Source: a virus (lineage: Duplodnaviria > Caudoviricetes). Taken from it: a DNA stretch of 52,184 nucleotides. Positions 1 through 15,402 of this stretch are shown one piece after another (position 1 is the first letter of the stretch; each line of letters starts with the position of its first letter). The stretch is taken from positions 1-52,184 of the IMG/VR virus record IMGVR_UViG_3300036852_000533; one strand, 5' to 3'. The notes under the pieces were generated by a model. The model had not been told where the DNA came from. It searched no databases and was given only the letters and a program-made list of their open reading frames with translations. The position numbers and the translations under genes are program-made.

Positions 1-127
1 GGGGGGGAGATTCCATCGAGGATTAAAAATGAAAACTGAAATTAAAGACGGCGGCCCAGCGTTCCCGCTTTGCACCCTCAATCCGTCGGACGGAACCAAG
101 TTTCTCTGGCAACAGGGAATGACCCTG
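1..127 (+). repeat. Terminal direct repeat, copy 1 (assembly circularisation overlap)
   Basis: Identical to 52058-52184; cuts through ORF 29..283. Confidence 0.95.
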
Positions 128-283
128 CGCGATCACTTCGCAGGCCTGGCCATGCAGGCGATTTTCTCGCGCTCAGAATCAATTAGCTGTCCCCAATCGA
201 GACTCGACGATGTAGAAAAGTGGGCTGATTATTCATATCAAATCGCCGACGCCATGATAGCCGCACGGGAGAGGAAGCCATGA
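29..283 (+). CDS. Conserved phage early hypothetical protein (GGPAFP...GMTLRDxFA family)
   Basis: DGGPAFP, GMTLRDHFAGLAMQ and YQIADAMIAAR motifs are common in small phage proteins; GAGG RBS upstream. Confidence 0.8.
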   Translation: MKTEIKDGGPAFPLCTLNPSDGTKFLWQQGMTLRDHFAGLAMQAIFSRSESISCPQSRLDDVEKWADYSYQIADAMIAARERKP

Positions 284-477
284 GCGACTACGCCGAACTG
301 TGCAAAGACCTGCGCGAACAGCGAAAGCTCGACCGCGAGAGGTATGGCGTGCCGTGCCCTGAGTGCGTCAGGCTGCTGCCGAAGGCGAATCCATCCATCC
401 TTCTGCCCGGCCAACGATGCCGCATCCACCGATACCGCGACCCGCGCAAACCCGAGAACAAACCACCGACCCCATGA
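280..477 (+). CDS. Small hypothetical protein with CxxC
   Basis: ATGA overlaps with both neighbours; CPEC motif. Confidence 0.65.
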   Translation: MSDYAELCKDLREQRKLDRERYGVPCPECVRLLPKANPSILLPGQRCRIHRYRDPRKPENKPPTP

Positions 478-1340: not shown

Positions 1341-1382
1341 AGACTCCCGAACTCGCCCGCGACGAGGGCGGTCGCTCGTAAG

Positions 1383-1697
1383 ATGGACACTCAAAGTGCA
1401 AAGCCGATCGGAGCGCAGGACAATGGCGCGGTTCGCTGCACTGTCGGGTTAGGCGCACGGAGTGAGTCAGCAACGAGTAAATGGCGAAGAAACAACCCAG
1501 AGAGGGCACTGGCCAAACACCTGAAAGATGAAGCGAAGAAAAACGAACGAAAACACGAAGCGGGCGGGCGCGCAGAAACCCAAACGAAATGTGTCGAGTG
1601 CGGGATGGTCTTTGACCGCACGGAGGCACACGTCCGAGGCTTCCGAATCCTCAAAGGAAACCGGGGCTACAACTGCATCTGCGATGAGTGCGCCTAA
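1383..1697 (+). CDS. Cassette-borne Zn-finger-like protein, paralog of 8685..8990
   Basis: CVEC...CICDECA; stop TAA lies in the GCCTAAC core box; reads through an attC half-site. Confidence 0.7.
   Translation: MDTQSAKPIGAQDNGAVRCTVGLGARSESATSKWRRNNPERALAKHLKDEAKKNERKHEAGGRAETQTKCVECGMVFDRTEAHVRGFRILKGNRGYNCICDECA
1426..1454 (-). repeat. attC half-site (R''/L'' arm only)
   Basis: Plus strand GCGCGG-TTC-GCTGCACT-GTCGG-GTTAGGC, same layout as the arms of the intact sites; partner arm not found. Confidence 0.6.
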
Positions 1698-1797
1698 CGT
1701 CGCATTAAGCCACGCCGATGAAACCTGAACCGTCCAATCTCGCCGCGAACCCTGTGCCGCCAACGCCCCCGGCGCTGGCTTCAGTAAGTGGTTATGC
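1692..1797 (-). repeat. attC recombination site (intact)
   Basis: Plus strand GCCTAAC-GTCGC-ATTAAGCCACGCCG ... CGGCGCTGGCTTCAGT-AAGTG-GTTATGC; imperfect hairpin with unpaired bases on the right arm. Confidence 0.8.
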
Positions 1798-2023
1798 GGT
1801 GGGTGACAAAGTGACGGCAACGAGAAACATCTGGAGTGCTGCCAACGAGGACTCGCCCATGTATCTCTGCGCTTATCGTGGCGACATCTTAGAAATCCGC
1901 CGACTTGGTTCGTGTGGGTGGGCCTGCTACGTCGCACATCCCGAAAAAGAATCCGGCCCAATGTTTGGTGTCGAGGCTGGTGAAATCAAACCGCATAACG
2001 CAAAATCACAAAAGGGCAAATGA
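1718..2023 (+). CDS. Cassette-borne hypothetical protein
   Basis: Starts inside the attC loop; body bounded by the inverted pair GTTATGCGGT (1791) / ACCGCATAAC (1990). Confidence 0.7.
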   Translation: MKPEPSNLAANPVPPTPPALASVSGYAVGDKVTATRNIWSAANEDSPMYLCAYRGDILEIRRLGSCGWACYVAHPEKESGPMFGVEAGEIKPHNAKSQKGK

Positions 2024-3033
2024 GCTTTCAAAAGTGCCAAATCGTCGGGGTGAACATCTCACCGACGACGTACCATCAACCTCAGAAACACGAGCGCGGG
2101 TCGCCGGAGTTTGTCATGTCTCAATCCGCACTTAAATCCTTCGGAAAATGCCCAAGCAAATGGAAGGACGGCGCCGAGGAGGATGACACCGCTTCAATGG
2201 CGTGGGGCAACTTGGTTGACACGCTCGTTCTCACGCCACAGTTGTTCGCCGAACGCTATGCCATCCGACCCGAGACGTACAAGGATGAGAAGGGCAACGT
2301 GAAGGACTGGCATCCGAACTCCAACACCTGCAAGGCGTGGTTGGAAGCCTGTCACAAGTATGGTCGAGAGGCCATCAGCCGGGGCAAAGAATCCGAGGCG
2401 TCCAAGGCAGTTCTCAGATTGAAGCGCGACGTTCGCATTGCCGCGTTCTTGGCGGTCTGCAAGTTCCAAGTCGAGTTGCGCGGCTTCTGGAAGGACGACG
2501 TGACCGGACTGGAGATACCCGTGCGCTGCCTTTTGGACGCCGTGCCAGAAGGTGACAGTGAATTCGGGAATGACCTTGGCGATCTAAAAACCTCCAAGGA
2601 TGTTTCGCTTTACACCTTCCGCAGGCAGGCTGTCCGGCTCGGATACCACATTCAATCCGCTTTCAGCTTGGACTTCTTCAATGCTGCCAGTGGGCAGCAG
2701 CGCAACCAATGGCGATTTCTCTTGCAGGAGAGTGATCCGCCGTACCAGACGGGCCGGCGCATTTGCACGTCCTACGAGAACCCGCAGGATGCACCACCGC
2801 AGAACTTCATCCAGTTCGGGCGCGACGAATACAAGCGGATGATGCGGAACTACTGCATCTGCCTCAAGGCGGGCGTGTGGGGCGATTTCGATACGACCGA
2901 CGAAAGCGTAGAGGGCTGGAGCGTGCTTGAAGCCGACCCATGGGCCGTGAATGACGCCCTGTTCGCCCCCAAATTCCAGTTGCCCGAGAGTGCGGAGGAT
3001 TTACGGGTCAATGTGGAGGAGATCACACCATGA
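2020..3033 (+). CDS. RecE/exonuclease VIII-like PD-(D/E)XK nuclease (DUF3799-like)
   Basis: SQSALKSF..CP, MAWGNLVDTLVL, RCLLD..DLKTS and GYHIQ motifs; near the SSAP gene. Confidence 0.8.
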   Translation: MSFQKCQIVGVNISPTTYHQPQKHERGSPEFVMSQSALKSFGKCPSKWKDGAEEDDTASMAWGNLVDTLVLTPQLFAERYAIRPETYKDEKGNVKDWHPNSNTCKAWLEACHKYGREAISRGKESEASKAVLRLKRDVRIAAFLAVCKFQVELRGFWKDDVTGLEIPVRCLLDAVPEGDSEFGNDLGDLKTSKDVSLYTFRRQAVRLGYHIQSAFSLDFFNAASGQQRNQWRFLLQESDPPYQTGRRICTSYENPQDAPPQNFIQFGRDEYKRMMRNYCICLKAGVWGDFDTTDESVEGWSVLEADPWAVNDALFAPKFQLPESAEDLRVNVEEITP

Positions 3034-3254
3034 TGACACCATTTACTCAGATAAAATCACAACAGTTTCGCATCTACGAATTAGAACAAGAACGCGACGC
3101 CCTCCGACAAAAACTTAGAACTTGCATGGAAGAAAAAGGCGGGGTCACAGCCAATTACCTTAAGTGCCAGAACGATTTCAATGTCCTGAAACAACAAGTC
3201 GCCGCAATGCGAAAGGATAAACCGTGGAAACAAGAATCATTTACAACTGGCTGA
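3030..3254 (+). CDS. Small coiled-coil hypothetical protein
   Basis: ATGA-coupled to the exonuclease gene; heptad-like sequence. Confidence 0.6.
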   Translation: MMTPFTQIKSQQFRIYELEQERDALRQKLRTCMEEKGGVTANYLKCQNDFNVLKQQVAAMRKDKPWKQESFTTG

Positions 3255-3640
3255 TCGGAGGCTATTGGCCAGGCACCATTACGAAGCGCGGCCTCACAAT
3301 CTGGATGGGCTACTACTTCAACCACGATACGCTCCGCGGACGCTTCTCCTACTGGCTTCTCAACCTCGATTGCGCCATGCGTCGTTCTCCGCACGACCTG
3401 AAATTATGGCTGGCCGACCAGCTTTCACGCGCGGCCATGCGCTTGCGGGGCGAAAAGGTGAGTGTTTTTGGATTCTACGATTACGCCAAGGGCAATCGCG
3501 CTGCGCAACTGTGCGATGCCGTGGATTTTGACCATTGTCTCAACTGGTCGAATGACGAGGCTGACATGATCGAGGAAAACCGGGCCAGACTCCAGGAACT
3601 TGCGAGCCTTGCGGGAGCGACCTGGAGAAGCAACCCATGA
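3224..3640 (+). CDS. Hypothetical protein
   Basis: In operon; AGGA RBS before GTG. Confidence 0.6.
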   Translation: METRIIYNWLIGGYWPGTITKRGLTIWMGYYFNHDTLRGRFSYWLLNLDCAMRRSPHDLKLWLADQLSRAAMRLRGEKVSVFGFYDYAKGNRAAQLCDAVDFDHCLNWSNDEADMIEENRARLQELASLAGATWRSNP

Positions 3641-3753
3641 AACCCATCGCCAGCTTCTGCCTCGTCATCTTCATCGCCTTATGTGTGGCAGCGTTCGCTG
3701 CCGTCACGCTGGCGGCCATTTACTTCTTGGCGACGATCTTCAGCCAGTCCTAA
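3637..3753 (+). CDS. 38-aa single-TM membrane peptide (below the ORF-track cut-off)
   Basis: MKPIASFCLVIFIALCVAAFAAVTLAAIYFLATIFSQS; ATGA overlap with the upstream gene. Confidence 0.55.
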   Translation: MKPIASFCLVIFIALCVAAFAAVTLAAIYFLATIFSQS

Positions 3754-3788
3754 AAAGTAAATCCCGCCAGCCCTTTCGGACTGACGGG
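3752..3788 (-). terminator. Intrinsic terminator for 3810..4457
   Basis: Minus strand CCCGUCAGUCC-GAAA-GGGCUGGCGGG, 11-bp stem with GU pairs, followed by AUUUACUUUUU. Confidence 0.8.
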
Positions 3789-3809
3789 AGCACTTGGAAA
3801 AATTCCCGG

Positions 3810-4457
3810 TTATGGCGTTCTAGGATTGATCGTCACCGTACCATCGGGAGACACAGAGACGGAATTGGTCTGTCCGCCCACGCGCACGAGCGAAGCATTG
3901 CCCCAAGGCGTGACCGCCTTGACCGCTACAATGGCGGGGTCATTCTTCAATTCGCGCGCCAGCTTGCCCAAGCCAGCCGTTGAGCAGCCGGTGAGCGTCA
4001 TTGAAGCAGTCCCGAGCGAGAGCGCGCCGACCAGAAACCACAGACCCACTTTTCCACTGCCTGAAATAACATCTTGATCAAGGAGCGGATTCTGTTTCAC
4101 GAGAGCTTGGTGTCCCCACGTCGCCAATCCGCCCATGACGGCGCCAACATCGCCGCTGCCAGTCCAATAACCGGCTTTTCCGCCAATGTAATCAAGCAGT
4201 GCGCCAATCACCGGGCCGCACCAAGGCAGCGCGGCATCGGGCACGAACTTCAACCATTTCTTTATGGCCATTACGAGCGCGCCGATAACTGGCACGAACA
4301 GGAACTTCCACGCGCTGAATCTGGCCACAAGGTCGTGAATCTTTTGATCGGTCGCGTTCAGTTCCGGTGGCGCATTGGAGACGGTCTGCGCCAGAACCGT
4401 AAACGCGAGTGCGAAAAGCGGGATGAGGACGAGAAACCAGCGGATGTGATTCTTCAT
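3810..4457 (-). CDS. Membrane protein: N-terminal signal/TM, holin-like core, C-terminal lipobox segment
   Basis: VPVIGALVMAIKK..VPDAALPW..VIGALL..GAVMGGLATWGH resembles small 3-TM phage holins; a later hydrophobic stretch ends in LTGC. Confidence 0.6.
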   Translation of the reverse strand: MKNHIRWFLVLIPLFALAFTVLAQTVSNAPPELNATDQKIHDLVARFSAWKFLFVPVIGALVMAIKKWLKFVPDAALPWCGPVIGALLDYIGGKAGYWTGSGDVGAVMGGLATWGHQALVKQNPLLDQDVISGSGKVGLWFLVGALSLGTASMTLTGCSTAGLGKLARELKNDPAIVAVKAVTPWGNASLVRVGGQTNSVSVSPDGTVTINPRTP

Positions 4458-4463
4458 GCCTTG

Positions 4464-4492
4464 GTTTTACGCCGATTGCAAAAATCGTGCAA
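4464..4492 (-). promoter_or_regulatory. Sigma70-like promoter, probably leaderless, for 3810..4457
   Basis: TTGCAC-17 nt-TAAAAC, then 6 nt to the ATG; overlaps a TTGCA..TGCAA palindrome. Confidence 0.55.
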
Positions 4493-4597
4493 GAAAAAGC
4501 TTGCGTGTTGTTTATTAACTGTTAAACATGCATAAGTGATCCGCAGCCGCAGCCGCAGCCACGGCGAAATTTGTCAGCCGTCAGCCATCATGTGTCT

Positions 4598-4882
4598 ATG
4601 AACGCGACAATCTATTTCATCTACGAACTGGAAGCCGCGAGAAGCTTCTCGTGCAAGAACACCGTCGAGGACATCGAGGGAGAAATCCGCTACTGGCTCG
4701 GCAAGAGTCCAGGAATGTTCAAAGACCAGCTCAGGGAAATCGTCGTCGTGCCGGATGACCAGAAGAAGGACTGGATGTATGTGCTCCAAAAGCTGGAGGA
4801 CGAACAATCCGAGGCTGAGGAACGCCATCGCCTCAAAGCCGAGAAACGCGAATATGACCGGCTGAAGGCGAAGTATGGCTAA
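4598..4882 (+). CDS. Hypothetical protein
   Basis: ATG at 4598; stop lies in the degenerate core box GGCTAAT. Confidence 0.65.
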   Translation: MNATIYFIYELEAARSFSCKNTVEDIEGEIRYWLGKSPGMFKDQLREIVVVPDDQKKDWMYVLQKLEDEQSEAEERHRLKAEKREYDRLKAKYG

Positions 4883-5723
4883 TGACCAAGCTCAAGCAAT
4901 GACCACCGGACCCACAACGACCACTGAACTACCGGCGATCCCGCCGTTGGCTGGGCGGACTGATTCGACTGATTCTCGTCCGAATCATAAAACACTCGTC
5001 AGGAAATCCGCCGCATGGCTGCGCAACCGGAAAAATTGCAATGTGGTGTTCGCGGAACTGGCGACGCAAAATAACGAGACGCCGGATGTCATCGGCTTCC
5101 ACGGTGCCGGCGGATCAATACTCGTGGAATGTAAAACCAGCCGCGCCGATTTCCTCGCGGACAAAAACAAAATCTTCCGGCACCACGAGGAAATGGGAAT
5201 GGGCGATGCGCGATACTTCGCCGCACCCAAAGGACTGCTCAAGCCGGACGAACTCCCGGAAGGATGGGGGCTGCTGGAAATTACTGACGCTGATGGCAGA
5301 ACCTACGAAACCAAACAGGCGACTTACAAGGAGGCGAACAAGCGTGCCGAGGTCAAGATGCTCATGTCGGCAATTCGCCGTCTGGAAATCTCGACGGCAG
5401 TGTTCGTGCGCGCCGAGGAGGAGAACAGTGCGCGCCCAGACATGGTGGCGCGATGGGCGAAAATCTGCCACGAAGCACACGACCGCGATGAAGCATGGAT
5501 AGCCATGCTCCGCCGCGAAGGAATAAAAGCCGCGCACCCTGACGACGGCTGGGTGGACAGGGAGAATAACACCGTCCACTTCGCGTATCCGCAATTCAAT
5601 GATGGCGCTGGCATCGGTGACAAAATCGCTCTCGGCTGGGCATCCGACAAATGGCGCATCGTGACAATCACGGGCCGGGCCGATGGGCTGCTATTAGAAC
5701 GTTGGGCCTTTTCGTCGAACTGA
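4875..5723 (+). CDS. PD-(D/E)XK / MmcB-like nuclease domain fused to a second unknown domain
   Basis: ETPDVIGF..ILVECKTSRADFLAD..GMGDARYF..ELPEGWGLL in the N-half; unrelated C-half begins at MVARWAK. Confidence 0.65.
   Translation: MANDQAQAMTTGPTTTTELPAIPPLAGRTDSTDSRPNHKTLVRKSAAWLRNRKNCNVVFAELATQNNETPDVIGFHGAGGSILVECKTSRADFLADKNKIFRHHEEMGMGDARYFAAPKGLLKPDELPEGWGLLEITDADGRTYETKQATYKEANKRAEVKMLMSAIRRLEISTAVFVRAEEENSARPDMVARWAKICHEAHDRDEAWIAMLRREGIKAAHPDDGWVDRENNTVHFAYPQFNDGAGIGDKIALGWASDKWRIVTITGRADGLLLERWAFSSN
4877..4969 (-). repeat. Degenerate attC
   Basis: GGCTAAT-GACCAA-GCTCAAGC resembles the left arm at 8985; right arm TTG-GCTGGGCG-GACTG-ATTCGAC; both cores mutated and stem weak. Confidence 0.45.
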
Positions 5724-5829
5724 TAACATCATGGGAAAGATTGCAACAAAAGCTCTGAGCTTCCGTGAGCGCCGCGCCGAATTCTCGACGCGCATCATGG
5801 CGAATGGCCGGCAGAACGCGCGATAAGTT

Positions 5830-6045
5830 ATGAAACTGGTAAACGCCGGCGACAGAGTGGCGGAAGCCTCATTCGCCCCAGCGTCCGAACTACCAACCAG
5901 CATGAATGGCCGATGCCCTCACTGCAACGACTGGACATGGGAACGGCTGTGGGGTGCTCTTGTCCAATGTCTTCAATGCGGGAGGCGCTACTACCACCGG
6001 GGCTGCGAACGGCGAATGCAGCACGACGACAAGCTGAGGCACTGA
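5830..6045 (+). CDS. Small Zn-ribbon-like protein
   Basis: CPHC...CLQC. Confidence 0.55.
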   Translation: MKLVNAGDRVAEASFAPASELPTSMNGRCPHCNDWTWERLWGALVQCLQCGRRYYHRGCERRMQHDDKLRH

Positions 6046-6049
6046 GGCG

Positions 6050-6340
6050 ATGCAAACGAAAATTTTACTCTGCAAGAAATGCGGAAAATATCTGGACGTA
6101 TGCAAATGCGCAGGGGCAAAGCCTCAGTTGCATCCAACGGGTGTTATGCGGCCACACCATAGAAAGAATATAGTACGCGAAGCAAAATCTGAGATCGAGT
6201 GGTGTAAGGATCAGATTGCGCTGACTCAACTCGGCGGTGAAACAAAGCCATACACGCGAGCCGAATGGATAGTCTGTATGAATCGAAGAATCGAGGCGAA
6301 TCAACAAATACTCAAAAAGCACAATGCTCTGGCCGCATAA
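6050..6340 (+). CDS. Cassette-derived hypothetical protein
   Basis: Segment 6143-6341 bounded by the 12-bp inverted pair GTTATGCGGCCA / TGGCCGCATAAC; stop in the core box. Confidence 0.65.
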   Translation: MQTKILLCKKCGKYLDVCKCAGAKPQLHPTGVMRPHHRKNIVREAKSEIEWCKDQIALTQLGGETKPYTRAEWIVCMNRRIEANQQILKKHNALAA

Positions 6341-6347
6341 CGAACCC

Positions 6348-6929
6348 ATGACAAAAAAAGAATGTATCATCAAAGCCTGTCAGGTAATCCGCAAGCGGGT
6401 GCGCTTCGATGGCGCGTCAATCTCGCTGCCGACGACTCCGTTTCCGGGTAATGACACGAAGGCAATCCGTGAGGCAACGCGCCTCTACGTGGAATCGTGG
6501 ATCGTGCCACTACTCGACTCCATCGAATCCGGCGACATGACCCGGATCCGACAATACTACGAATTTGAGAAGGGCCACAAAATGGAGTCGCCCAACGTAA
6601 AGGTGGGCGGTCAGAGTGGGCGCGAGAATATGAAAAATGAAACTCCGAGAAGCGATGCTGCCGAAGAACGAACACGGCTGAACTACGAGATGTCTCGCGA
6701 GTGCGGCGACCCGCCATATCCCGGTGCTGACATGGCAGACTTTGCTCGTGGGCTGGAACGCGAACTGAATGAGGTGCTGGCGGTGTTCCGCCACCGGCAT
6801 GTGAACAACGGCGAGAATGATGGCTGTAAAAAGTGCGGCCTCGATCTGCGCCACGAGATACATGAGCGCGTGGCCGCGCAGCCCAACGGCCCGGATGAGC
6901 GGCCCGGCGCTAACACCCCAAAACTCTGA
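6348..6929 (+). CDS. Hypothetical protein, probably two genes in frame (second start at 6630) joined across an attC remnant
   Basis: GCCCAAC-GTAAAG-GTGGGCGG half-site at 6590 precedes an internal MKNETPRSD start. Confidence 0.55.
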   Translation: MTKKECIIKACQVIRKRVRFDGASISLPTTPFPGNDTKAIREATRLYVESWIVPLLDSIESGDMTRIRQYYEFEKGHKMESPNVKVGGQSGRENMKNETPRSDAAEERTRLNYEMSRECGDPPYPGADMADFARGLERELNEVLAVFRHRHVNNGENDGCKKCGLDLRHEIHERVAAQPNGPDERPGANTPKL

Positions 6930-6991
6930 CATGCAAAACGACCTTCTAACTGCTGACGCTCCGCCGGGTTCACACCAGCGCATGGTTGTGC
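6881..6991 (-). repeat. attC site (intact cores)
   Basis: GCCCAAC-GGCCCG-GATGAGC-GG-CCCGGCG ... CGCCGGG-TTC-ACACCAGC-GCATG-GTTGTGC. Confidence 0.75.
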
Positions 6992-7004
6992 CCATACTAC
7001 CGAC

Positions 7005-7319
7005 ATGCACACAAACGAAAAACTAATCTTCGAGGAAATTACAAATCCGAATGTCCTGCCAAAACTCAAGCTGGATGTCGTGGAATGTCCCGACTGTCAC
7101 CACCGCATTGCAGTGCCGGTGAAATATACTGACTGGCAAGAAACCGCTGAACGCTATCGGCGCGCATACGAAGCAATGATGACCAAACTCGGCGTGCTGC
7201 TCAAAGAGGCCGGTGAACAATTCGACGTGCCGTTGGTGGAATACTTCGACACCGAACGGCAACTGATGATCCAAATGCTCAACGAAATAATCGCTGGACT
7301 CGATAAACGCGATGAATAG
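7005..7319 (+). CDS. Cassette-borne hypothetical protein
   Basis: Bounded by GTTGTGCC (6985) / GGCACAAC (7319); CPDC motif. Confidence 0.7.
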   Translation: MHTNEKLIFEEITNPNVLPKLKLDVVECPDCHHRIAVPVKYTDWQETAERYRRAYEAMMTKLGVLLKEAGEQFDVPLVEYFDTERQLMIQMLNEIIAGLDKRDE

Positions 7320-7454
7320 GCACAACGCCCGAACTGAGCGACCGGAGGCGAAACATGAATAGCGATATACGCATGATGAATGTGGAGGATCAGCAAGACC
7401 TAAAAACTTTCGAGCAGGACGAGCCTCCAGTTCGCTCCAGTGAGCTTTTTAGAT
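7320..7454 (-). repeat. attC site with mutated R'' core
   Basis: GCACAAC-GCCCGA-ACTGAGC-GA-CCGGAGGC ... GCCTCCAG-TTC-GCTCCAGT-GAGCTT-TTTAGAT (GTT changed to TTT). Confidence 0.7.
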
Positions 7455-7729
7455 GCGTCGAAGTATCAAGTCAACTAAAAGACAATCTGACCGTGATGAA
7501 ACGGCTAATCGGCGACAAATGGCAAGAGTCGTCGAAGGAATATCGGGTCATCCTGCTCGCAGTGATGGCCGCAAGCGGAGACACCAACCCGCTAGGCTGC
7601 GCGATACCGATGGCAAAGGAAATGTCCGAACGAGGACACAGCCCGCTCATGCTGCTGGCCGTCGCAACGGAAATGAGCGAAGCATCTGACGTAGAGCGCA
7701 GCGACGGCGCTCAGAAAGACTCACGATGA
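7355..7729 (+). CDS. Cassette-borne hypothetical protein
   Basis: GGAGG RBS and ATG inside the attC; stop inside the next attC. Confidence 0.7.
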   Translation: MNSDIRMMNVEDQQDLKTFEQDEPPVRSSELFRCVEVSSQLKDNLTVMKRLIGDKWQESSKEYRVILLAVMAASGDTNPLGCAIPMAKEMSERGHSPLMLLAVATEMSEASDVERSDGAQKDSR

Positions 7730-7774
7730 AAAAGAAAACACAACAGCGCCGTTCGCTGCCGCGACGGGCTATGA
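7684..7774 (-). repeat. attC site with both cores mutated
   Basis: ATCTGAC-GTAGAG-CGCAGC-GA-CGGCGCT ... AGCGCCG-TTC-GCTGCCGC-GACGG-GCTATGA. Confidence 0.65.
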
Positions 7775-7980
7775 CTCCGAAGGGTTGGCGGCGACTGCTC
7801 GTGGGAGAGATGACCAGAAAAGGCGACTGGCTGGAAAATGTCGGAGATGGTCCGTGGACACGTCTGCGCGTCCGTTACTGCCTTAAAGAAGTAGAAGGTG
7901 ATTGGCGTGCCATCATCCGCCGGACGACCTCTCGCAAAAGGAGTCCTAACGCAGACTTCAGACACCCCGCCACACCATGA
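7726..7980 (+). CDS. Cassette-borne basic hypothetical protein
   Basis: Start in the attC loop with ATGA overlap; ends GCTATGACTCC / GGAGTCCTAAC are imperfectly complementary. Confidence 0.6.
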   Translation: MKKKTQQRRSLPRRAMTPKGWRRLLVGEMTRKGDWLENVGDGPWTRLRVRYCLKEVEGDWRAIIRRTTSRKRSPNADFRHPATP

Positions 7981-8023
7981 CTACCGAACTTAAAATGACG
8001 CGCGATGGCGGGGTTGTCTGGAC
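7944..8023 (-). repeat. Truncated attC (R'' lost)
   Basis: TCCTAAC-GCAGAC-TTCAGACA-CCCCGCCA ... TGGCGGGG-TT-GTCTGGAC; no GTT core follows. Confidence 0.6.
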
Positions 8024-8031
8024 TCTCTAAC

Positions 8032-8322
8032 ATGAACGCAACATATCCAACCGTCGAAGAGCAGGAGAAACTAGAACCTGCCAGAACTGTGCCCCGCTGT
8101 CGTGAATCGCAACGCTGGCTGAAAGAAGCCGACAAAATCATCGCGGCATACCCGGAGAAACACCGCGAGTATCACGCAATGGTGCTGCGGCATACCTACG
8201 AGAACGGGCTGTATGACACGAACTGTGCAATCAAATCTCTCATGGCGATAAAGGAACTCATCATCAAGGGTGAATACTCTGACGAGCGCGTGCTGGAACT
8301 GATAAACGAAGGGCTGCAATGA
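8032..8322 (+). CDS. Hypothetical protein
   Basis: ORF in the coupled early operon. Confidence 0.65.
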   Translation: MNATYPTVEEQEKLEPARTVPRCRESQRWLKEADKIIAAYPEKHREYHAMVLRHTYENGLYDTNCAIKSLMAIKELIIKGEYSDERVLELINEGLQ

Positions 8323-8522
8323 ATCTCGTGATGCTCATAGAAGAAGGATGCCGGGAAGTCTATGTGAACCCGGAAAGCGTCGAGTCAGTCCAAAATGCCG
8401 CAGGCGGAAAAGACTCCATCTTGTATCTGAAAACCGGGCGAAAGCTGATAGTCACCGGGTCAAGTGGCGATGTAATGTGCAAACTCAAAGGCATACGCTC
8501 GTGGAGAGACGCCCTGAAATGA
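8319..8522 (+). CDS. Small beta-rich hypothetical protein (FlbD-like pattern)
   Basis: VYVNPESVESV..SILYLKTGRKLIVTGS..DV resembles FlbD-like small proteins. Confidence 0.5.
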   Translation: MNLVMLIEEGCREVYVNPESVESVQNAAGGKDSILYLKTGRKLIVTGSSGDVMCKLKGIRSWRDALK

Positions 8523-8692
8523 AAACCTACACTGCCGAAGATTTCAAACGCTGGGGCGCGAAGGGCGGTGCAAAGTCCAAGCGTGTGCTGACCAAAGCAC
8601 AGGCCAAGGCGATGGTCGCCGCACGGGAAAAGAAACTTCGGAAAACCAAGCGCGTGGCCCGGCGTGCTAACGCAGAGGTCAGCCATGAGTGA
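8519..8692 (+). CDS. Small basic KGG-motif protein
   Basis: FKRWGAKGGAKSKR; very Lys/Arg rich; stop inside the attC. Confidence 0.65.
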   Translation: MKTYTAEDFKRWGAKGGAKSKRVLTKAQAKAMVAAREKKLRKTKRVARRANAEVSHE

Positions 8693-8762
8693 CGCGCCCG
8701 CGACATCCGAATCCACGCAAACCGTCAACGCGGCACTCATTGGCTGCACCGACGGGTTAGGC
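8665..8762 (-). repeat. attC site (intact)
   Basis: TGCTAAC-GCAGAG-GTCAGC-CA-TGAGTG ... CACTCA-TTG-GCTGCACC-GACGG-GTTAGGC. Confidence 0.82.
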
Positions 8763-8990
8763 GCACGGGATTGGAAGGCATACCGGCGCATCTGGAACAA
8801 GACGCACCCTGAAAGCATCAAGTCAGCACAGAAAAAACTGAGAACCAAAAAACATGAACAAGGCGAAATCGTCAACCAAGCCGAGTGCAAATGCACCGTA
8901 TGCAAAAGCGTCTTCAACCGCGATGACGCGCACCTGCGGGGATACCGATTCCTGTCGCGCTTCGTATGCGTGTGCGACGAGTGCGCCTAA
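8685..8990 (+). CDS. Cassette-borne Zn-finger-like protein, paralog of 1383..1697
   Basis: GLGAR...KHE.G...KC..C..VF.R..AH.RG.R...C.CDECA shared with 1383..1697; ends GTTAGGCGCAC / GTGCGCCTAAC. Confidence 0.75.
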   Translation: MSDAPATSESTQTVNAALIGCTDGLGARDWKAYRRIWNKTHPESIKSAQKKLRTKKHEQGEIVNQAECKCTVCKSVFNRDDAHLRGYRFLSRFVCVCDECA

Positions 8991-9110
8991 CGACCAAGCT
9001 CAGCGACCTGTGCCGGAGACAGGCGTTGAGCGGAAAGGAAACGATGAATGAACCAACAGCGGTCGTGCGTGAAAAGCGCGGCACAGGTTCTCTGGAGCGC
9101 ATGGTTAGGT
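8985..9110 (-). repeat. attC site (intact)
   Basis: GCCTAAC-GACCAA-GCTCAGC-GA-CCTGTGCCG ... CGGCACAGG-TTC-TCTGGAGC-GCATG-GTTAGGT. Confidence 0.85.
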
Positions 9111-9373
9111 GTGCGTCGTGCAAATACTGGGGAACTAAACCCGGTGAACGCGGCAATCCTCGCCTGCGGTCCTGCAACCATCCAAAGCATGTGATGGGAT
9201 ACCAGTCCGCCGCCGCCGTGCCAGATGACGGAATGATAATCGAATCGGATGAGGGATGGGGCATCGAAGTTGGGCCTCTCTTTGGGTGCGTGAATGGTGA
9301 GGCGAGCACACCTAACGGTGCGCTATGCGACGGGGATGAGCCGCCGCAGACGTTGAAATCGAAACAATCGTGA
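9044..9373 (+). CDS. Cassette-borne Cys-rich hypothetical protein
   Basis: AAGGA RBS and ATG in the attC loop; CASCKYW...GPLFGCV; ends GTTAGGTGTGC / GCACACCTAAC. Confidence 0.75.
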   Translation: MNEPTAVVREKRGTGSLERMVRCASCKYWGTKPGERGNPRLRSCNHPKHVMGYQSAAAVPDDGMIIESDEGWGIEVGPLFGCVNGEASTPNGALCDGDEPPQTLKSKQS

Positions 9374-9410
9374 ACGGCTCATCCCCGTTCGCTGCAGCGC
9401 ATGGTTAGGC
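9310..9410 (-). repeat. attC site (intact)
   Basis: ACCTAAC-GGTGCG-CTATGC-GA-CGGGGATGAGCCG ... CGGCTCATCCCCG-TTC-GCTGCAGC-GCATG-GTTAGGC. Confidence 0.87.
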
Positions 9411-9436
9411 GACTGGAATAATTTTTGGAATAATTT

Positions 9437-9649
9437 ATGAACGAGAAAGAGCAAACCGATCACTTCGCCAACGATGTGGACAACCTGGTAGAACGTTACC
9501 GGAGCGAATACGAGATGAGCTACGCCGCCGTCGTGGGCGTGCTCCAAATGAAAATCCATCTACTGTGCGACGAAGCATCGGAGCGTGGTGATGAAGTCGC
9601 CCAACGTCCGCATAAGCGATGGCGGACACGAGACGTGAAAATTAACTGA
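9437..9649 (+). CDS. Cassette-borne hypothetical protein
   Basis: Ends GTTAGGCGACT / AGTCGCCCAAC; C-terminal tail encoded by the next attC. Confidence 0.7.
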   Translation: MNEKEQTDHFANDVDNLVERYRSEYEMSYAAVVGVLQMKIHLLCDEASERGDEVAQRPHKRWRTRDVKIN

Positions 9650-9687
9650 CGGCATCGCCCGCCATTCGCTTCATGCGGTGGTTAGGC
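9599..9687 (-). repeat. attC site (intact)
   Basis: GCCCAAC-GTCC-GCATAAGC-GA-TGGCGG ... CCGCCA-TTC-GCTTCATGC-GGTG-GTTAGGC. Confidence 0.85.
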
Positions 9688-9708
9688 ATCCGTCGAACCA
9701 ACAAAAAC

Positions 9709-9924
9709 ATGATACATATAATCGAATCCTTCGCCTGCGGACTCGCGTTCGCAATGGGAATAACCTCGTGGTTCTTCATCCGCGACTTGGCGACCGTGAA
9801 AGGTCGCGAAGAACTGAAAAAAGAAATGCACGAACACGCCAAGCGCGTCGAGGACAGGCTGGCTGTCCAAGTCTCGACGATGCTTGTCTGTCTCGACGAA
9901 ATCAAGAAGCGCAAGGATGCCTAA
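9709..9924 (+). CDS. Cassette-borne small membrane-anchored protein
   Basis: N-terminal TM then coiled coil; ends GTTAGGCATCC / GGATGCCTAAC; stop in the core box. Confidence 0.7.
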   Translation: MIHIIESFACGLAFAMGITSWFFIRDLATVKGREELKKEMHEHAKRVEDRLAVQVSTMLVCLDEIKKRKDA

Positions 9925-10023
9925 CGAAAAAGCTGACCGATGAGAGGGAGCGCGCCAACGACGTTCGATTCGAGAGTGAGCCAAACGCGCTCCCTCTCAT
10001 TCGTGTCCAGCGCATTGTTCCCC
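9919..10023 (-). repeat. attC site (intact, belongs to the attI-proximal cassette)
   Basis: GCCTAAC-GAAAAG-CTGACC-GA-TGAGAGGGAGCGCG ... CGCGCTCCCTCTCA-TTC-GTGTCCAGC-GCATT-GTTCCCC. Confidence 0.85.
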
Positions 10024-10044
10024 GACTGGTCGAAAAAGAAAAGC

Positions 10045-10073
10045 TTGACACCACAAGCGGCTTGTGATACAAT
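10045..10073 (+). promoter_or_regulatory. Near-consensus sigma70 promoter with a palindromic operator in the spacer
   Basis: TTGACA-17 nt-TACAAT; spacer contains CACAAGC-G-GCTTGTG (10052-10066). Confidence 0.8.
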
Positions 10074-10083
10074 GCCAGTGAAG

Positions 10084-10461
10084 ATGAAAACTGAACTCAT
10101 CCAAATCGGGCTGACCGCCGCACAGGTGGACTCAGCGGACTGGCTACTCGGCTGCCCTCTCTTTTACGATGCCGCCGAATCACTCGCCCACAACTGGGAC
10201 GAGACACCGGAGCGCGCCGCCGCAATCGTGGCCGCTGCAAAACAAGTGAAGCGTGACGGGCGGACTCTGACGCTGCCAAACGACCATGAGGTAATCGAAT
10301 ACCTGCACCAATACGCCGAGCAACTGGCGGACATGAGCGCAAAGGAATACCTCGATGAACTCGTGGGCAAAGGCATCCCGCACCGTGAAGCTCAATGCAA
10401 GGTCAACGCCGCCGTGCGGTCTGCGGAATCGCTCGCGGAGAAAATCGCCTGCCACCTATGA
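10084..10461 (+). CDS. Hypothetical protein, first gene of the two-gene attI-proximal cassette
   Basis: ATG just downstream of the promoter; ATGA-coupled to the next gene. Confidence 0.7.
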   Translation: MKTELIQIGLTAAQVDSADWLLGCPLFYDAAESLAHNWDETPERAAAIVAAAKQVKRDGRTLTLPNDHEVIEYLHQYAEQLADMSAKEYLDELVGKGIPHREAQCKVNAAVRSAESLAEKIACHL

Positions 10462-10613
10462 ATCCCGAAGCTCGCAAATACCTCGCCAGCATCGGAAGCA
10501 AAGGCGGGAAGGCAACCGGGACAAGCAAGCGGCGTGGGTCTGCCGCCTACTACAAACGAATCTCAAAGCTCGCCGCGAAAGCACGAAAGGCGAAGTCGGG
10601 GAACTCTTATTAA
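10458..10613 (+). CDS. Small basic KGG-motif protein (possible DNA-binding regulator)
   Basis: YLASIGSKGGKATG..RG..YYKRISKLA; stop codon lies within the attI candidate. Confidence 0.7.
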   Translation: MNPEARKYLASIGSKGGKATGTSKRRGSAAYYKRISKLAAKARKAKSGNSY

Positions 10614-10616
10614 GCA
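10598..10616 (-). other. Candidate attI site
   Basis: Minus strand TGCTTAA-TAAGA-GTTCCCC (L box, 5 nt, R box) with no hairpin partner; AGTCGGGGAAC at 10594 is the perfect complement of the cassette's other end GTTCCCCGACT at 10017; immediately upstream of intI. Confidence 0.7.
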
Positions 10617-10626
10617 TCATCCACGC

Positions 10627-11601
10627 ATGTTTAAGGATAATTTCATAACGGTTGCCAGAGCACACGGGTTGCGACTCCAGACCGAACGCGCTTATTACGG
10701 CGCGGCAGCCAAGCATATTAAGTGGCTTGGAGCGAGGTCTGCAAAGGATTTGGAGCGTGATCCGACGAAACAATTCCGGGATTACCTCACCATGCTGGCC
10801 AATGTGAATGGCGATAGAAGCGAAGGCGACGAAGGCATTTCAGCTTCCAGCCAGAATTTGGCATTTCACGCATTGAGATTTCTCTACGAAAAAGTAATCG
10901 GCATCCAGCTTGGAGACCTTTCAAACATTCCGCGCGCAAGCGGGCACGAAAGAATTGTGGATGTGCCCCCTGACGATGTGGCGATAAAACTCGTGCAATC
11001 AGTGCCGGGCGTTAACGGAGTCGCGCTGCGCTTGATCTATGGCACTGCCGGACGGCTCAATGACATTCTGAGATTGCGAGTTAAGGATTTGGACTTCCGC
11101 AGGAAACTCGTGAGCGTGCAGGAGAGCAAGGGTGGTAAATCACGCCTCGTCCCAATGCCGCCTAGTCTGATTCCAGAACTTTCCGCGCTGGTAAAGGAGC
11201 GGGAAAGGATTCACGAGGCAGACTTGGCGGACGGATTTGGGTGGGTTCACATGCCGGGGATGCTGGCCAAAAAATATCCTGGAGAGGAAAACTCGCCCGG
11301 CTGGCAGTACCTGTTCGCATCAGCAACACTTTCCAAAGACCCCATCAGCGGAAAAACGGGGAGGCATCATATCTTTGACGTGACATTGCAACGTGCCTTC
11401 GCCAATGCGCGGCGGAAGTTGCGAATCAAACGGCACTACACTATTCACGGACTCCGCCACGCTGCGGCTCAATGGATGGAGCGCAACGGGGTGACGCGCT
11501 CAACGATTCAGGAAATTCTCGGGCACGAAAATTCGAGTACGACCGACCGTTATCTCCTATCTGGGAAACGCAGCGTGGCGAACGTGCCGACGCCAATCTA
11601 G
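10627..11601 (+). CDS. intI: Integron integrase (IntI-family tyrosine recombinase)
   Basis: N-terminal SAM-like domain (TERAY..SASSQNLAFHALRFLY); catalytic R (GRLND), K (SKGGK), HGLRH, LGH, Y (TTDRY); IntI-specific insert GWVHMPGMLAKKYP..GWQYLF...SKDPISGKTGRHH. Confidence 0.92.
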   Translation: MFKDNFITVARAHGLRLQTERAYYGAAAKHIKWLGARSAKDLERDPTKQFRDYLTMLANVNGDRSEGDEGISASSQNLAFHALRFLYEKVIGIQLGDLSNIPRASGHERIVDVPPDDVAIKLVQSVPGVNGVALRLIYGTAGRLNDILRLRVKDLDFRRKLVSVQESKGGKSRLVPMPPSLIPELSALVKERERIHEADLADGFGWVHMPGMLAKKYPGEENSPGWQYLFASATLSKDPISGKTGRHHIFDVTLQRAFANARRKLRIKRHYTIHGLRHAAAQWMERNGVTRSTIQEILGHENSSTTDRYLLSGKRSVANVPTPI

Positions 11602-12301: not shown

Positions 12302-14152
12302 TCATTTCGAGTGTTGCACCACGAACGGCGCGCTCAAAGCTGTCGTCGTGGCTGAACCGCCGTTGGCGTGATCCAGGTCATCAAAATAGATGGTGTTTCG
12401 GAATCCACCCACGCTTGCCACATGCCCCGCCGAATCCACGGCGATTGCACTGCCACTGGTGGGGGCCGCGCCGCCTGCCCGCTTCACCCATCGGCTTGCG
12501 CCCGTGCTGTTGGCGCTGGCGATGAAATAGGTGGCATTTCCGCTTAGAAATGTGTTTGGAGCGAAGGAAACAAATGACGTAAGCTGGCCGGTGTAGAAGA
12601 TATTTCCGCTGCTGTCCACCGTCACGGAAACACCCAAGTCCCCTGCTCCATAGCCGTAACCGGGAATGTTTGGAGTTCTGGCCCACAAGTAATTTCCACT
12701 CACATCGTACGCCGCAAGAAACAGGCCGCCATCGTTGTTGGCTGTGCCGTCATAATATGCCACCACCGGGCCTCCCACGGATGAGGAAGCACGATAATTC
12801 CCCGTGGCGATGATATTTCCGGTGATCGGGTCAGCGGCAACAGCCTTGATGCCGTCGTCTGAAGGACTACCTCTTGGCTTGAACCATTTGCACAGCCCGT
12901 CCGATCCTGAAAATTTTACCAGAAACACGTCGTAACCCGCACTGACCACACTCTGGCCACACAGATTGACCGTGCCATTGTATCCTCCACACAGGACTGC
13001 ATCTCCGAACTTGTCAATGGCCAGAGCACTCGGGCTGTTTAGAATCAAGGACGATGAGGAAAACCCTTTGGCCCAGAGCGCCGTGCCGTTATTACTGGAT
13101 AGCTTGGCGACAGCGATGGCATTACCGGGACCGGTGTTGGCGACGGTAAAGCTGTCAAACACCATTCCAGTGCCGACAAACTGACAGGCAACAAACACGT
13201 TGCCGCTTCCATCCAATGACACGCCTTTGCCTCCTGAACTGGATGACGAACCAAAGCGTCTCGCCCAGATGAGAGTGCCCGGAACACCGGAAGTGCCGGG
13301 AGAATATTTGGCGACATACGTATCGGTGGAGGCCACTGCCGTCAGCGGTGTGCCGCCGAAGTCCACCGTGCCTGAAAAGAATCCACAGACGATAATGTTC
13401 CCGGTTGAGTCCGTGGCCACACCCGTCACATCTTCATTGTAGATGCCGCCGAGGCGCTTCGCCCAAAGCAGACCGCCCTGGGAGTTGTATTTGACAACGA
13501 AAATGTCCGTTCCGCCCGCTGATTCCAGATGAGTGTTTCCGAAATCAACGTAGGGAGCGAACGCACCGGAGGAGATGACGTTTCCATTGGCATCAGCGGC
13601 CACGGCAGTTGGGCTGGCGTTCGCGTTAAGCACGCCGATACCAACCCATCTGAACGTTCCCGGAACGGGCGCATTGGTCGGCCTGGCCACGACGCGATAA
13701 ACCATCATACTGTTCGTGCGTGGGAGTTGCAGGACGTTTGTGCTGTTGGTCGGTGGATACACTGATGAAGCTTGTAACCATGTTGCGCCGCTGGGAACCA
13801 CTGTCGGTTTGCTCTCGATGAAACTCTCGTAACTATTGGTCGCCGTCCATTTCAGGACGACGGTGTTCGAGCTTTTCGTGATGAAAATGGCGGCGGGATA
13901 TGAACCGAGCGGTGTTGTCGGAACTGGTGGAGGTTGTGCGGCGACCATTGCAGCAATCTGATTCGTGGTCGGCACATAATAGTTCTTCGTCGGATCAATT
14001 GCGGCCGTGCTCACCATCGGCTTGTTGAGCGTGTCGGCGCTGGCCGCGTCCTTCGGGCTGCGGACTTTGGCGTTCAATGGCAGCACAAGCATCATCACGC
14101 ACGCCGCAAGCAGCGTGAGGGCCAGAATCTTTTCCTCGGTGCGCCAGTTCAT
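12302..14152 (-). CDS. Secreted-type beta-propeller (SBBP-like repeat) protein
   Basis: Repeated VAxDxxGN..G.F..TVDFG..DxFVVKY..G..LWAK blades; N-terminal signal-like segment; start reassigned to 14152. Confidence 0.75.
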   Translation of the reverse strand: MNWRTEEKILALTLLAACVMMLVLPLNAKVRSPKDAASADTLNKPMVSTAAIDPTKNYYVPTTNQIAAMVAAQPPPVPTTPLGSYPAAIFITKSSNTVVLKWTATNSYESFIESKPTVVPSGATWLQASSVYPPTNSTNVLQLPRTNSMMVYRVVARPTNAPVPGTFRWVGIGVLNANASPTAVAADANGNVISSGAFAPYVDFGNTHLESAGGTDIFVVKYNSQGGLLWAKRLGGIYNEDVTGVATDSTGNIIVCGFFSGTVDFGGTPLTAVASTDTYVAKYSPGTSGVPGTLIWARRFGSSSSSGGKGVSLDGSGNVFVACQFVGTGMVFDSFTVANTGPGNAIAVAKLSSNNGTALWAKGFSSSSLILNSPSALAIDKFGDAVLCGGYNGTVNLCGQSVVSAGYDVFLVKFSGSDGLCKWFKPRGSPSDDGIKAVAADPITGNIIATGNYRASSSVGGPVVAYYDGTANNDGGLFLAAYDVSGNYLWARTPNIPGYGYGAGDLGVSVTVDSSGNIFYTGQLTSFVSFAPNTFLSGNATYFIASANSTGASRWVKRAGGAAPTSGSAIAVDSAGHVASVGGFRNTIYFDDLDHANGGSATTTALSAPFVVQHSK

Positions 14153-15402
14153 TGCGGATGCCAGACCATGATTGGAGTTGCCACGCTGTAAGTGATCGTT
14201 GTCCATTCTCCCGGTTGGAGCGGAATCGTGTGATCGCCAGAAACCAGCGTTCCGAAAATGGCCGCGCCGTTCAGATTTACCGCCGTGGTCGCGCCGTTGG
14301 CGTCGAGAAATACATTCACGTTTTTGGTGAGCGTGTTCGTCCAATTAAATGGAGATGCGGTAACACTGATACTCGTTGAGGCCAGTTGGTTGGAGGCGTA
14401 GGAAGCGACACCATTCGTTACATAAATCTGTTGTTGCAAATGAAGGTTGCTAAGGAGCAACGAACACGTCACTTCGCCGGAGTTCACAATCCTGCCGATA
14501 TTCACCGCACTTGGCTCAAGACCGATTTGGGTTGACCCACTTCGCGGCACGAAGAATCCATTGCCGGTGTAGGAGTAACCCTGAACATTCAAGTCTCCAG
14601 TCGCCACATAGGCAGTGGGGACTTGGAGATTGCCGCTGAGATTGGTCTGCCCGCCGTTCGTCAGGCAGAGGGTGATTTTCGTGACGGTATTTGTTCCGGC
14701 GGTGAAGGTATGAGTGTTGGTGTTGATTGCGACCCACTCGAACGGCGCTACGGGATTGCTAGACAAAAGGAATGAGAAAGAGTTGGCGTTCGTGAGAAGC
14801 GGCCCAGGCGGGAGTGCGTTCACCTGAGCGAAAGTGGTGGCCGTGCCATCGGCGTCAATCGGGACTGCGCCGCTGGCGGTGGCATTGGCGATACCACGAG
14901 CACCGTCTCCAACTTGCACACGGCCACTAGTGAGCGTGGCGTTGTTGGTGGTCAGCGTCGCGCCGGTGACGTTGCCGACGGGGATGCTGGGCGACACTCC
15001 GTTGGTGGAAACCGTCCGTCCGTCCGCACTGACGGTAATGCCGCTGCCAGCCGTGACGGTGTTGGACATTCCCGCGCCGTTGCCGGTGAAGCTGCCGGAC
15101 CAACTGTTGCTCGGGTTGATGCGGGCGGTGGGGACGGTGCCGCTGGCGAGGGCGGAGGCGTTTAGATCGGTCAGGCCCGCTCCGTTGCCGATGAAGTTGG
15201 TGGCCACAACGCTGTCTGCGGACAGCGTTCCCAACACAACAAGATTAGTGGTCAACGCGTCAGACTTGATTCCCAGCTTGGAAGTTCCGGTCGTTCCGTA
15301 AAATTGATTGGTGTCAAATGACTGGAAAGAAGGATTGGCCCCAAAGGCTGAAAGGGAAAGTAATAGCGCGCCGAGTATCGAGAATTGAATGAATGATTTC
15401 AT
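14149..15402 (-). CDS. Fibre-like Thr/Asn/Gly-rich protein with a signal-peptide-like N-terminus
   Basis: F.GNGAGLT.LNAS.L.SGTVP.ARI motif typical of trimeric fibres; MKSFIQFSILGALLLSLSAFG. Confidence 0.6.
   Translation of the reverse strand: MKSFIQFSILGALLLSLSAFGANPSFQSFDTNQFYGTTGTSKLGIKSDALTTNLVVLGTLSADSVVATNFIGNGAGLTDLNASALASGTVPTARINPSNSWSGSFTGNGAGMSNTVTAGSGITVSADGRTVSTNGVSPSIPVGNVTGATLTTNNATLTSGRVQVGDGARGIANATASGAVPIDADGTATTFAQVNALPPGPLLTNANSFSFLLSSNPVAPFEWVAINTNTHTFTAGTNTVTKITLCLTNGGQTNLSGNLQVPTAYVATGDLNVQGYSYTGNGFFVPRSGSTQIGLEPSAVNIGRIVNSGEVTCSLLLSNLHLQQQIYVTNGVASYASNQLASTSISVTASPFNWTNTLTKNVNVFLDANGATTAVNLNGAAIFGTLVSGDHTIPLQPGEWTTITYSVATPIMVWHPQ

Follow-up and report, generated by a model that had tools for sequence, protein, structure and literature searches.

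A phage genome carrying what is probably a complete integron with cargo on the attC bottom strand and neighbour-coded C-terminal tails

The window analysed here is the whole of virus record IMGVR_UViG_3300036852_000533 (Duplodnaviria; Caudoviricetes), 52,184 bases of phage DNA. The region leading up to its integron integrase gene, intI, is probably the cassette array of a complete phage-borne integron, in which the cargo genes lie on the attC recombination sites' bottom strand and C-terminal tails are coded by the neighbouring site. Integrons are understood to stack promoterless genes in one fixed orientation, with attC as a non-coding tag behind each gene.

Gene ends at the cassette boxes

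The first-pass annotation of the window had reported that six open reading frames (ORFs), starting at 6348, 7355, 7726, 8519, 9044 and 9437, have no stop before the AAC core box and end inside the next attC, and that ORFs 1383, 6050, 8685 and 9709 stop at the TAA of that box. All six ends proved correct, and all four TAA stops were confirmed. Among 15 + strand ORFs near a box, two (474-1340 and 7005-7319) have an earlier stop of their own, five stop at the box TAA and eight run on for 0-18 codons. ORF 6348-6929 reads GCTAAC (6909-6914) as Ala-Asn and continues for four codons to a TGA at 6927, while ORF 7355-7729 extends 12 codons past the degenerate box CATCTGAC (7683-7690) to a TGA at 7727. 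ORF 7726-7980 passes through CCTAAC (7945-7950) for nine further codons, ORF 8519-8692 through GCTAAC (8666-8671) for six, and ORF 9044-9373 through CCTAAC (9311-9316) for 18, which adds the tail PNGALCDGDEPPQTLKSKQS. ORF 9437-9649 reads through ATTAAC (9641-9646) and meets a TGA immediately after. Three ORFs can be added to these ten: ORF 1718-2023 and ORF 10458-10613, the latter ending two codons past GGGGAAC, run on, and ORF 4598-4882 stops at the TAA of a degenerate GGCTAAT. Two qualifications apply: ORF 7355 is followed by a degenerate box, for which the term AAC core is inexact, and decay has affected two of the next attC sites.

attC sites and inverted boxes

Four hairpins bounded by YCTAAC and GTTAGGC have the features of attC sites, namely RYYYAAC and GTTRRRY boxes and extrahelical bases on one arm, and four further sites are decayed or partial. 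All sites lie on the + strand, and z scores refer to folding as DNA. The first hairpin, attC1 (8666..8762; GCTAAC to GTTAGGC; z −2.25 for 8664-8764), contains the final six codons of ORF 8519 together with the start codon and leader of ORF 8685. In attC2 (8986..9110; CCTAAC to GTTAGGT; z −1.1 for 8984-9112) the expected stem is present, and the loop contains both the ATG of ORF 9044 and its ribosome-binding site. The best hairpin, attC3 (9311..9410; CCTAAC to GTTAGGC; z −7.3 for 9309-9412), codes the 18-residue tail of ORF 9044. With attC5 (9920..10023; CCTAAC to GTTCCCC; z −3.6 for 9918-10025), 90% identity is seen to a site in locus L011, the flanks of the two being unrelated. The attC4 remnant (9641..9687) consists of ATTAAC, a 3' arm and GTTAGGC and forms no hairpin (z ≥ 0 for 9639-9689); the same applies to a degenerate site at 6909..6991, where a GCTAAC box is followed by what is left of a 3' arm, with GTTGTGC at its end (z ≥ 0 for 6943-6993). 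Of two decayed attC sites, one (7683..7775; boxes CTGAC and GCTATGA; z −2.16) has in its loop the TGA of ORF 7355 overlapping the ATG of ORF 7726, and the other (7945..8035; z −2.23) retains a CCTAAC box and a stem with a bulged T and has lost its 3' box. Further traces are a 3' arm match at 1425-1455 (24.8 bits) and an attC arm remnant near 4877-4900.

The 3' box of each site is an inverted repeat of the next site's 5' box, not of its own. Seven perfect inverted 10-mer pairs (GTTnnnnnnn / nnnnnnnAAC) flank cargo within bases 1-10700, compared with a mean of 0.18 and a maximum of 2 in 300 shuffles. The 3' box likewise pairs with the next 5' box at 8/8 junctions in L016 and at 7/7 in L011. Box pairing with the next site is the footprint that cassette exchange within the conserved triplet would leave.

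Cargo in the window is thus flanked by complementary boxes, one cassette (9404-9646) excepted. All cargos listed here are on the + strand. Stops at the box TAA are found for the cargo of ORF 1383-1697 (1448..1698) and that of ORF 8685-8990 (8756..8991), both with boxes GTTAGGCGCA and TGCGCCTAAC, for the cargo in ORF 6050-6340 (6143..6341; GTTATGCGGC and GCCGCATAAC) and for that of ORF 9709-9924 (9681..9925; GTTAGGCATC and GATGCCTAAC). In the cargo of ORF 1718-2023 (1791..1999; GTTATGCGGT and ACCGCATAAC) the gene continues for seven codons past GCATAAC, and its TGA overlaps the ATG of the exonuclease gene. The cargo of ORF 9044-9373 (9104..9316; GTTAGGTGTG and CACACCTAAC) has no stop within the cassette, and that of ORF 9437-9649 (9404..9646) is the exception, its boxes GTTAGGCGAC and GAAAATTAAC not being complementary. 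The last cassette, next to the predicted attI (10017..10604; ORFs 10084-10461 and 10458-10613), has as its boxes GTTCCCCGAC and GTCGGGGAAC, and a copy of 10028-10599 with 95% identity occurs alone in another metagenome contig.

Outside the array, four extra perfect GTT.../...AAC 10-mer pairs are present (16909/17843, 31416/32806, 44514/44699 and 48659/48814; 0.61 expected from shuffles), which may be cassette fossils.

The recombining strand

According to Nivina 2016 (PMC5027507), the integrase cuts within the 5'-AAC-3' of the attC bottom strand, extrahelical bases are on the arm opposite that AAC triplet, and the unpaired parts of the bottom strand are purine-rich. On the + strand of the window AAC is on the 5' arm, and the 3' arm carries a bulged T as well as a second bulge. 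Because the extra bases lie opposite AAC, the + strand would be the bottom strand, cut at AA|C. Bacterial data bear this out without recourse to that rule. A 19-base stretch taken from the 3' arm is shared by at least 139 bacterial-genome loci, mostly of Verrucomicrobiota and Planctomycetota. Six of the contigs also contain an IntI relative, and in every one of them intI is found downstream of the sites on the pattern strand (the counterpart of the + strand here), as it is in the window. In four of these six the array could be seen to close with an AAC box that complements the last 3' box, and the sequence beyond it forms no hairpin.

The opposite, classical polarity would make the + strand the top strand, with crossover at G|TT of the 3' box, each attC belonging to the preceding gene and tails travelling along with it. 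A gene before its attC is indeed the textbook layout, and breaks right after the GTT box are seen in L007/L010, in L156/L158 and in contigs from runs X1 and X2. We nevertheless regard this polarity as highly improbable: the extra bases stand opposite AAC on the + strand, the placement of intI and cargo in bacteria makes the pattern strand the bottom strand, the last box abuts intI, and the starts of ORFs 1383, 8685 and 9044 would fall outside their own cassettes. Moreover, the downstream attC is not kept in any of the three families compared. The upstream link is kept more often (8685 family, L159, L004/L007), which favours AA|C.

Taken together, bulge side, bacterial polarity, the terminal box at intI and the changes in tails speak for the crossover at AA|C that had been proposed from the window sequence, while junctions at the GTT box are also seen. 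The comparison of sites and families favours AA|C as the main junction. With a crossover there, the coding sequence beyond AA|C would belong to the next cassette.

Integrase and predicted attI

The gene intI (10627..11601, + strand) encodes an integron-type tyrosine recombinase, which is the sole integrase of the window and the last gene of the operon. IntI matches TIGR02249 over its full length (positions 10-311 of 315; E 1.6e-68) with 231 bits, which is below the NCBIfam curated cut-off of 265. The closest solved relative is VchIntIA of Vibrio cholerae (2A3V; E 6e-35), to which the stretch specific to integron integrases (around ALKEKYP...RRHH) aligns without gaps, and the extra domain between conserved patches that marks the IntI clade is present. 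IntI also keeps the motifs aligned to the VchIntIA active site, which we take to be the catalytic Arg, Lys, His-x-x-Arg, His and Tyr. Searches of viral contigs with peptide patterns found no IntI relatives.

The last 3' box GTTCCCCGAC is matched by GTCGGGGAAC at 10595-10604, ending 22 nucleotides (nt) before the intI ATG. A terminal AAC box followed by non-hairpin sequence is a layout common to the window, L074, L093, L095 and L014. From this layout, the segment 10595..10640, which overlaps the start of intI, is predicted to be the attI at the head of the array, adjoining intI at its 5' end. The attI-proximal cassette contains a promoter-like site (10045-10073, + strand; TTGACA, 17 nt, TACAAT, with a TG before the latter; 11/12 matches) directed at ORF 10084, ORF 10458 and intI. 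It is the best such site in the first 11.7 kb, where the total of promoter-like sites shows no excess over shuffles.

Orientation of the cargo in bacterial arrays and phages

Bacterial arrays of the same attC family are textbook integrons in which the pattern strand is the bottom strand. There, 57/67 cargos have their longest open frame on the reverse strand, and a codon model, whose accuracy on 240-nt test pieces was 97/119 and 357/481 (74-82%), placed 56/68 cargos on that strand. Pfam matches were obtained for 7/77 reverse ORFs versus 1/69 forward ORFs (an IS481 transposase).

For the phages, the codon model and homology were used, since longest-ORF counts fail to tell the coding strand in short phage cassettes. 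Coding on both cargo strands was considered and ruled out, open antisense frames being present in 55-61% of 210-240-nt windows in the long genes of the phage. The model placed 7/9 cargos of the window on the + strand and 7/8 cargos of L011 on the pattern strand, and called 23/31 flanks of attC sites in other viral loci forward. In L011, DnaB and an MT-A70 methylase read forward. Compared with its L159 relative, the ORF 9044 cargo shows 5, 4 and 16 differences at first, second and third codon positions, respectively.

In contrast to the arrangement with promoterless top-strand cargo before its own attC and a promoter near attI, the bottom-strand cargo of the window reads toward intI. This reversal is one of cargo arrangement and does not touch the recombination machinery. 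For ORFs 8685 and 9044 and in L012, attC loops contain the start codon together with a ribosome-binding site, and the 8685 family has no alternative in-frame start. As starts lie within attC loops, the order in a + strand cassette would be attC, then gene.

Two of the viral records deserve separate mention. In L015/L016 (record G002, classed as a provirus), bases 770-6160 contain nine attC sites with bacterial-type reverse cargo at one contig end, so that either host DNA is included or a prophage lies beside a chromosomal integron; a prophage within a host integron is unsupported, the array being at one end only. In L011, a DnaB helicase with an apparent intein-type insertion (2960-4990, − strand) is directly followed by the cassette array.

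Tails among homologous cassettes

The proposal made from the window sequence was that reordering swaps C-terminal tails or creates in-frame fusions, and that sequence identity among homologues should therefore end at AAC with variable tails beyond it. This pattern is seen in three cargo families, with L159 9 nt off. In the 9044 family, the body from RMVRC (GTT box) to GEAS(TPN) (AAC box) is common to the window and three homologues (88-92% identical), and the four sequences have four different tails; in L159, the upstream attC can be aligned with that of the window and the downstream attC is another site. In the 1718 family, the body of P0011 is nearly identical to that of the window, and its tail after PHN is EKGQR instead of AKSQKGK. 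The cargo common to L004 and L007 is 87% identical, and the alignment diverges right after GCGCCTAAC, one copy ending in GELCSGANNQ-stop and the other running on into a DNA methylase. In none of the three families is the same tail retained whatever the neighbour. The fusion in L007 (4030-4959) is an in-frame ORF of 309 residues, comprising cargo and DNA methyltransferase, so fusions of the kind foreseen do exist in a relative.

The neighbour's share can also be seen from the side of attC. The body of attC3 is identical at 82-86 of 88 positions in the window, L156 and L158, while the flanks match at only 15-20 of 57-59. Three unrelated ORFs read it in the same frame and acquire the same 18-residue tail, which in the L158 copy is two residues shorter through a new stop. 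The 8685 family serves as a control: with identities as low as 44%, its members (5/5) all finish in CDECA at the box TAA, inside the cassette. These alignments show a tail that is coded by the neighbour and changes on cassette exchange.

The further suggestion that this provides a combinatorial route to protein diversification fared less well. Under that explanation, open-ended cassettes would adaptively swap tails and make fusions, as the differing tails of the 9044, 1718 and L004/L007 homologues, the L007 fusion and the non-random frame at the box might suggest. The tails are short, however (0-18 codons in the window, 5-24 in L011), and amount to translated hairpin arms. They vary freely, their conservation being no greater than the identity of the attC DNA, with one copy shortened by a stop alone. 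In addition, most end by the next start, and stops beside the following start codon explain the frame bias as well. Adaptive diversification is therefore very unlikely.

Reading frame at the box and a possible mechanism

Thirteen ORFs of the window reach a box, eight in the Asn frame, five in the TAA frame and none in the third, although the frame of 2/13 (boxes 9925 and 10604) was set by judgement, contrary to the longest-frame rule. With the Asn frame in 6/6 ORFs of L011, the third frame is used in 0/19 ORFs of the pooled set. On the non-coding forward strand of bacterial arrays the three frames occur 25/19/20 times. The tally for viral loci (A 4, B 1, none 2) is small, and the 5' arm model behind it finds consensus arms only.

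Run-on in the Asn frame is generally brought to a stop by a TGA overlapping the next ATG or at most 8 nt from it (five cases in the window, four in L011). For run-on ORFs before a forward ORF, the offsets from stop to next ATG are −4, +1, −4, −4 and −8 in the window and +4, +8, −4 and −4 in L011. A mini-ORF of 17 codons (7977-8031), its ATG overlapping the TGA of ORF 7726, spans a decayed attC as far as a TAA that precedes the ORF 8032 ATG by 2 nt, and looks like a translational-coupling relay.

A mechanism can be proposed in which the + strand is the attC bottom strand and the integrase would cut AA|C in the box ahead of each hairpin. A + strand cassette would then consist of C, attC, GTTnnnn, cargo and nnnnAA, its cargo genes running with the phage early operon and intI. 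Each gene is seen to begin within its own attC or immediately behind it and to take up the cargo as far as its end, where it either stops at the TAA that GTTAnnn leaves on the + strand or reads AAC as Asn into the next attC, with a run-on stop that is usually a TGA at or beside the next start codon. If there is an effect on translation, it may be that a ribosome running into the 5' arm opens the hairpin and ends beside the following start codon. Since the run-ons mostly end at or beside the next ATG, we infer that the tails arise as a passive by-product, a cost of fitting hairpins into an operon. The run-on is possibly used for translational coupling.

Leaders and junctions on both sides of attC

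N-terminal leaders are coded by attC as well, a feature overlooked in the first-pass annotation. The attC-coded leaders MSDAPATSESTQTVNAALIGCTDGLG and MKPEPSNLAANPVPPTPPALASVSG (window 8685-8762 and 1718-1797) recur nearly unchanged on unrelated metagenome proteins (P0005-P0009, P0012 and P0013). A lake metagenome contig is identical to 8669-8748 and differs before AAC.

Several observations count against an integron exchanging bottom-strand cassettes at AA|C. The attC1-coded leader MSDAP...GLG heads two unrelated proteins (P0008 and P0009), that of ORF 1718 heads two others (P0012 and P0013) while P0011 has a different leader, and the same attC body precedes unrelated cargo in L156 and L158. 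The contigs of runs X1 and X2, from the likely source sample and a second soil sample, leave the window right after the 3' box of attC3 (9410-9411), and the identity with L159 stops short of AA|C by 9 nt. Either junctions form at the GTT box as well or attC types are reused, and AA|C may not be the sole or main crossover. Among the metagenome contigs aligned to the window, contigs being the only material, no clean cassette excision joint was found; four joints listed in that alignment were discarded as repeat matches, with sides of 25 letters or fewer. To these come the sub-threshold score of IntI and the two frames set by judgement. Lastly, the stops of ORFs 9044 and 9437 precede the nearest ATG by 27 and 23 nt and the start of the next ORF by 63 and 59 nt, which is unlike coupling.

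Three candidate causes of the two-sided joining of attC bodies are possible: many cassettes may draw on the same attC types, as happens in large chromosomal arrays; recombination may at times involve the top strand; or the Erf system of the phage may exchange modules across conserved arms. The last of these leads to a more far-reaching explanation, a fossil array whose sites IntI no longer acts on and whose modules are swapped between phages through homologous recombination by Erf and exonuclease (474-3033), with the conserved attC arms of 20-24 nt serving as linkers. Junctions on both sides of attC bodies, the decay of several window sites and the presence of an IntI relative in just 1/10 of the related viral records searched all fit such an array, as does the coding of Erf and an exonuclease VIII-like protein by the phage. 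On the other hand, intI is intact and the residues aligned to the VchIntIA active-site motifs are kept, breaks occur at AAC/GTT triplets even beside the non-consensus arm of attC3, and the perfect 10-mer box pairs flanking cargo are a footprint of site-specific exchange. On balance, a fossil array is unlikely, and a phage-borne integron with bottom-strand cargo is the reading that we prefer.

An extension of the preferred reading can be put forward only tentatively, and we consider it rather doubtful. Phages of Verrucomicrobiota-type hosts might maintain a mirror-image cassette pool of start-less, stop-less bottom-strand modules, set within the early operon and with translated attC sites, in which AAC/GTT exchange would shuffle modules like exons, with selection on frames. 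Each attC would then supply the following gene with a leader, and the preceding gene with a stop, a tail or an in-frame bridge.

Gene content of the phage

Besides the Erf-type annealing protein (474-1340) and the exonuclease VIII-like protein (2020-3030), the phage codes a DnaB helicase, a Holliday-junction resolvase and a large terminase. Its host is probably a member of the Verrucomicrobiota or Planctomycetota. When 24 window ORFs were compared with 155 bacterial and viral loci, no relatives were found, the exonuclease excepted, and ORFs 6348 and 7726 have no close relatives among the viral contigs searched. Scans of the window with Rfam models and for tRNAs gave no matches.

Within the array, ORFs 8519-8692 and 10458-10613 code small lysine-rich proteins with a KGG motif (WGAKGGAK and IGSKGGKA); a contig of run X2 joins matches to both, suggesting a third family member. 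Four − strand ORFs code for a protein with SBBP beta-propeller repeats (12305-14344), a glycosyltransferase of family 2 with 796 residues (19454-21841), a GroES-like co-chaperonin (22066-22350) and a protein of 1438 residues that contains a GNAT acetyltransferase domain (28373-32686). The record starts with a run of seven G (1-7), which may be an assembly or end artefact.

Comparison with known systems

In class 1 integrons, translation runs through attI1 and attC, as with the ORF-11 leader and the hindrance of ribosomes by attC hairpins. Those integrons and this phage have in common that recombination sites are translated and that a neighbouring site may supply a part of a protein or aid the translation of the next gene. 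In class 1 integrons, however, the effect is at the 5' end of top-strand genes, whereas in this phage both ends of bottom-strand genes are concerned. Inverted toxin-antitoxin cassettes reportedly occur in large chromosomal integrons, singly, with their own promoters and in an otherwise canonical array. Like the phage cargo, they are read against the usual direction of the array; in the phage, by contrast, the codon model puts 7/9 cargos in reverse, read as one operon.

According to the available part of Qi et al. 2023 (PMC9892861), integrons and attC clusters occur in phage genomes, with cassettes oriented as in bacteria. The phages described there have attC sites, in a few cases with an integrase, and carry DNA methyltransferase cargo, as L004, L007 and L011 do. 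Unlike that description, this phage has a complete integron with the integrase as last gene of the operon; the available part of the paper makes no mention of bottom-strand genes, start codons in loops or neighbour-coded tails. In a full-text literature search, in which most matches were judged by their listing, no paper was found on bottom-strand cargo or neighbour-coded tails.

A phage using the full integron machinery in reverse, with the sites as parts of reading frames, would have cassette order determine the beginnings and ends of proteins and the passage of translation between genes. It would be a concrete, testable case of a mobile recombination site setting gene boundaries, and gene callers and integron finders will mis-annotate such arrays. 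The layout also points to a phage cassette pool that is distinct from the host pool, with an attC family common to both. Chromosomal integrons of Verrucomicrobiota and Planctomycetota (metagenome-assembled genome loci L018-L155, e.g., L074, L093, L095 and L070) share with the phage this attC family, with 5' arm AACGACCCAAGCTCAGCGAC and 3' arm TTCGCTGCAGCGCATGGTTAGGC, the position and strand of intI and the terminal AAC box beside it. In those chromosomal integrons, genes are on the attC top strand before attC, whereas the phage has them behind attC on the bottom strand, with translation running through the sites.

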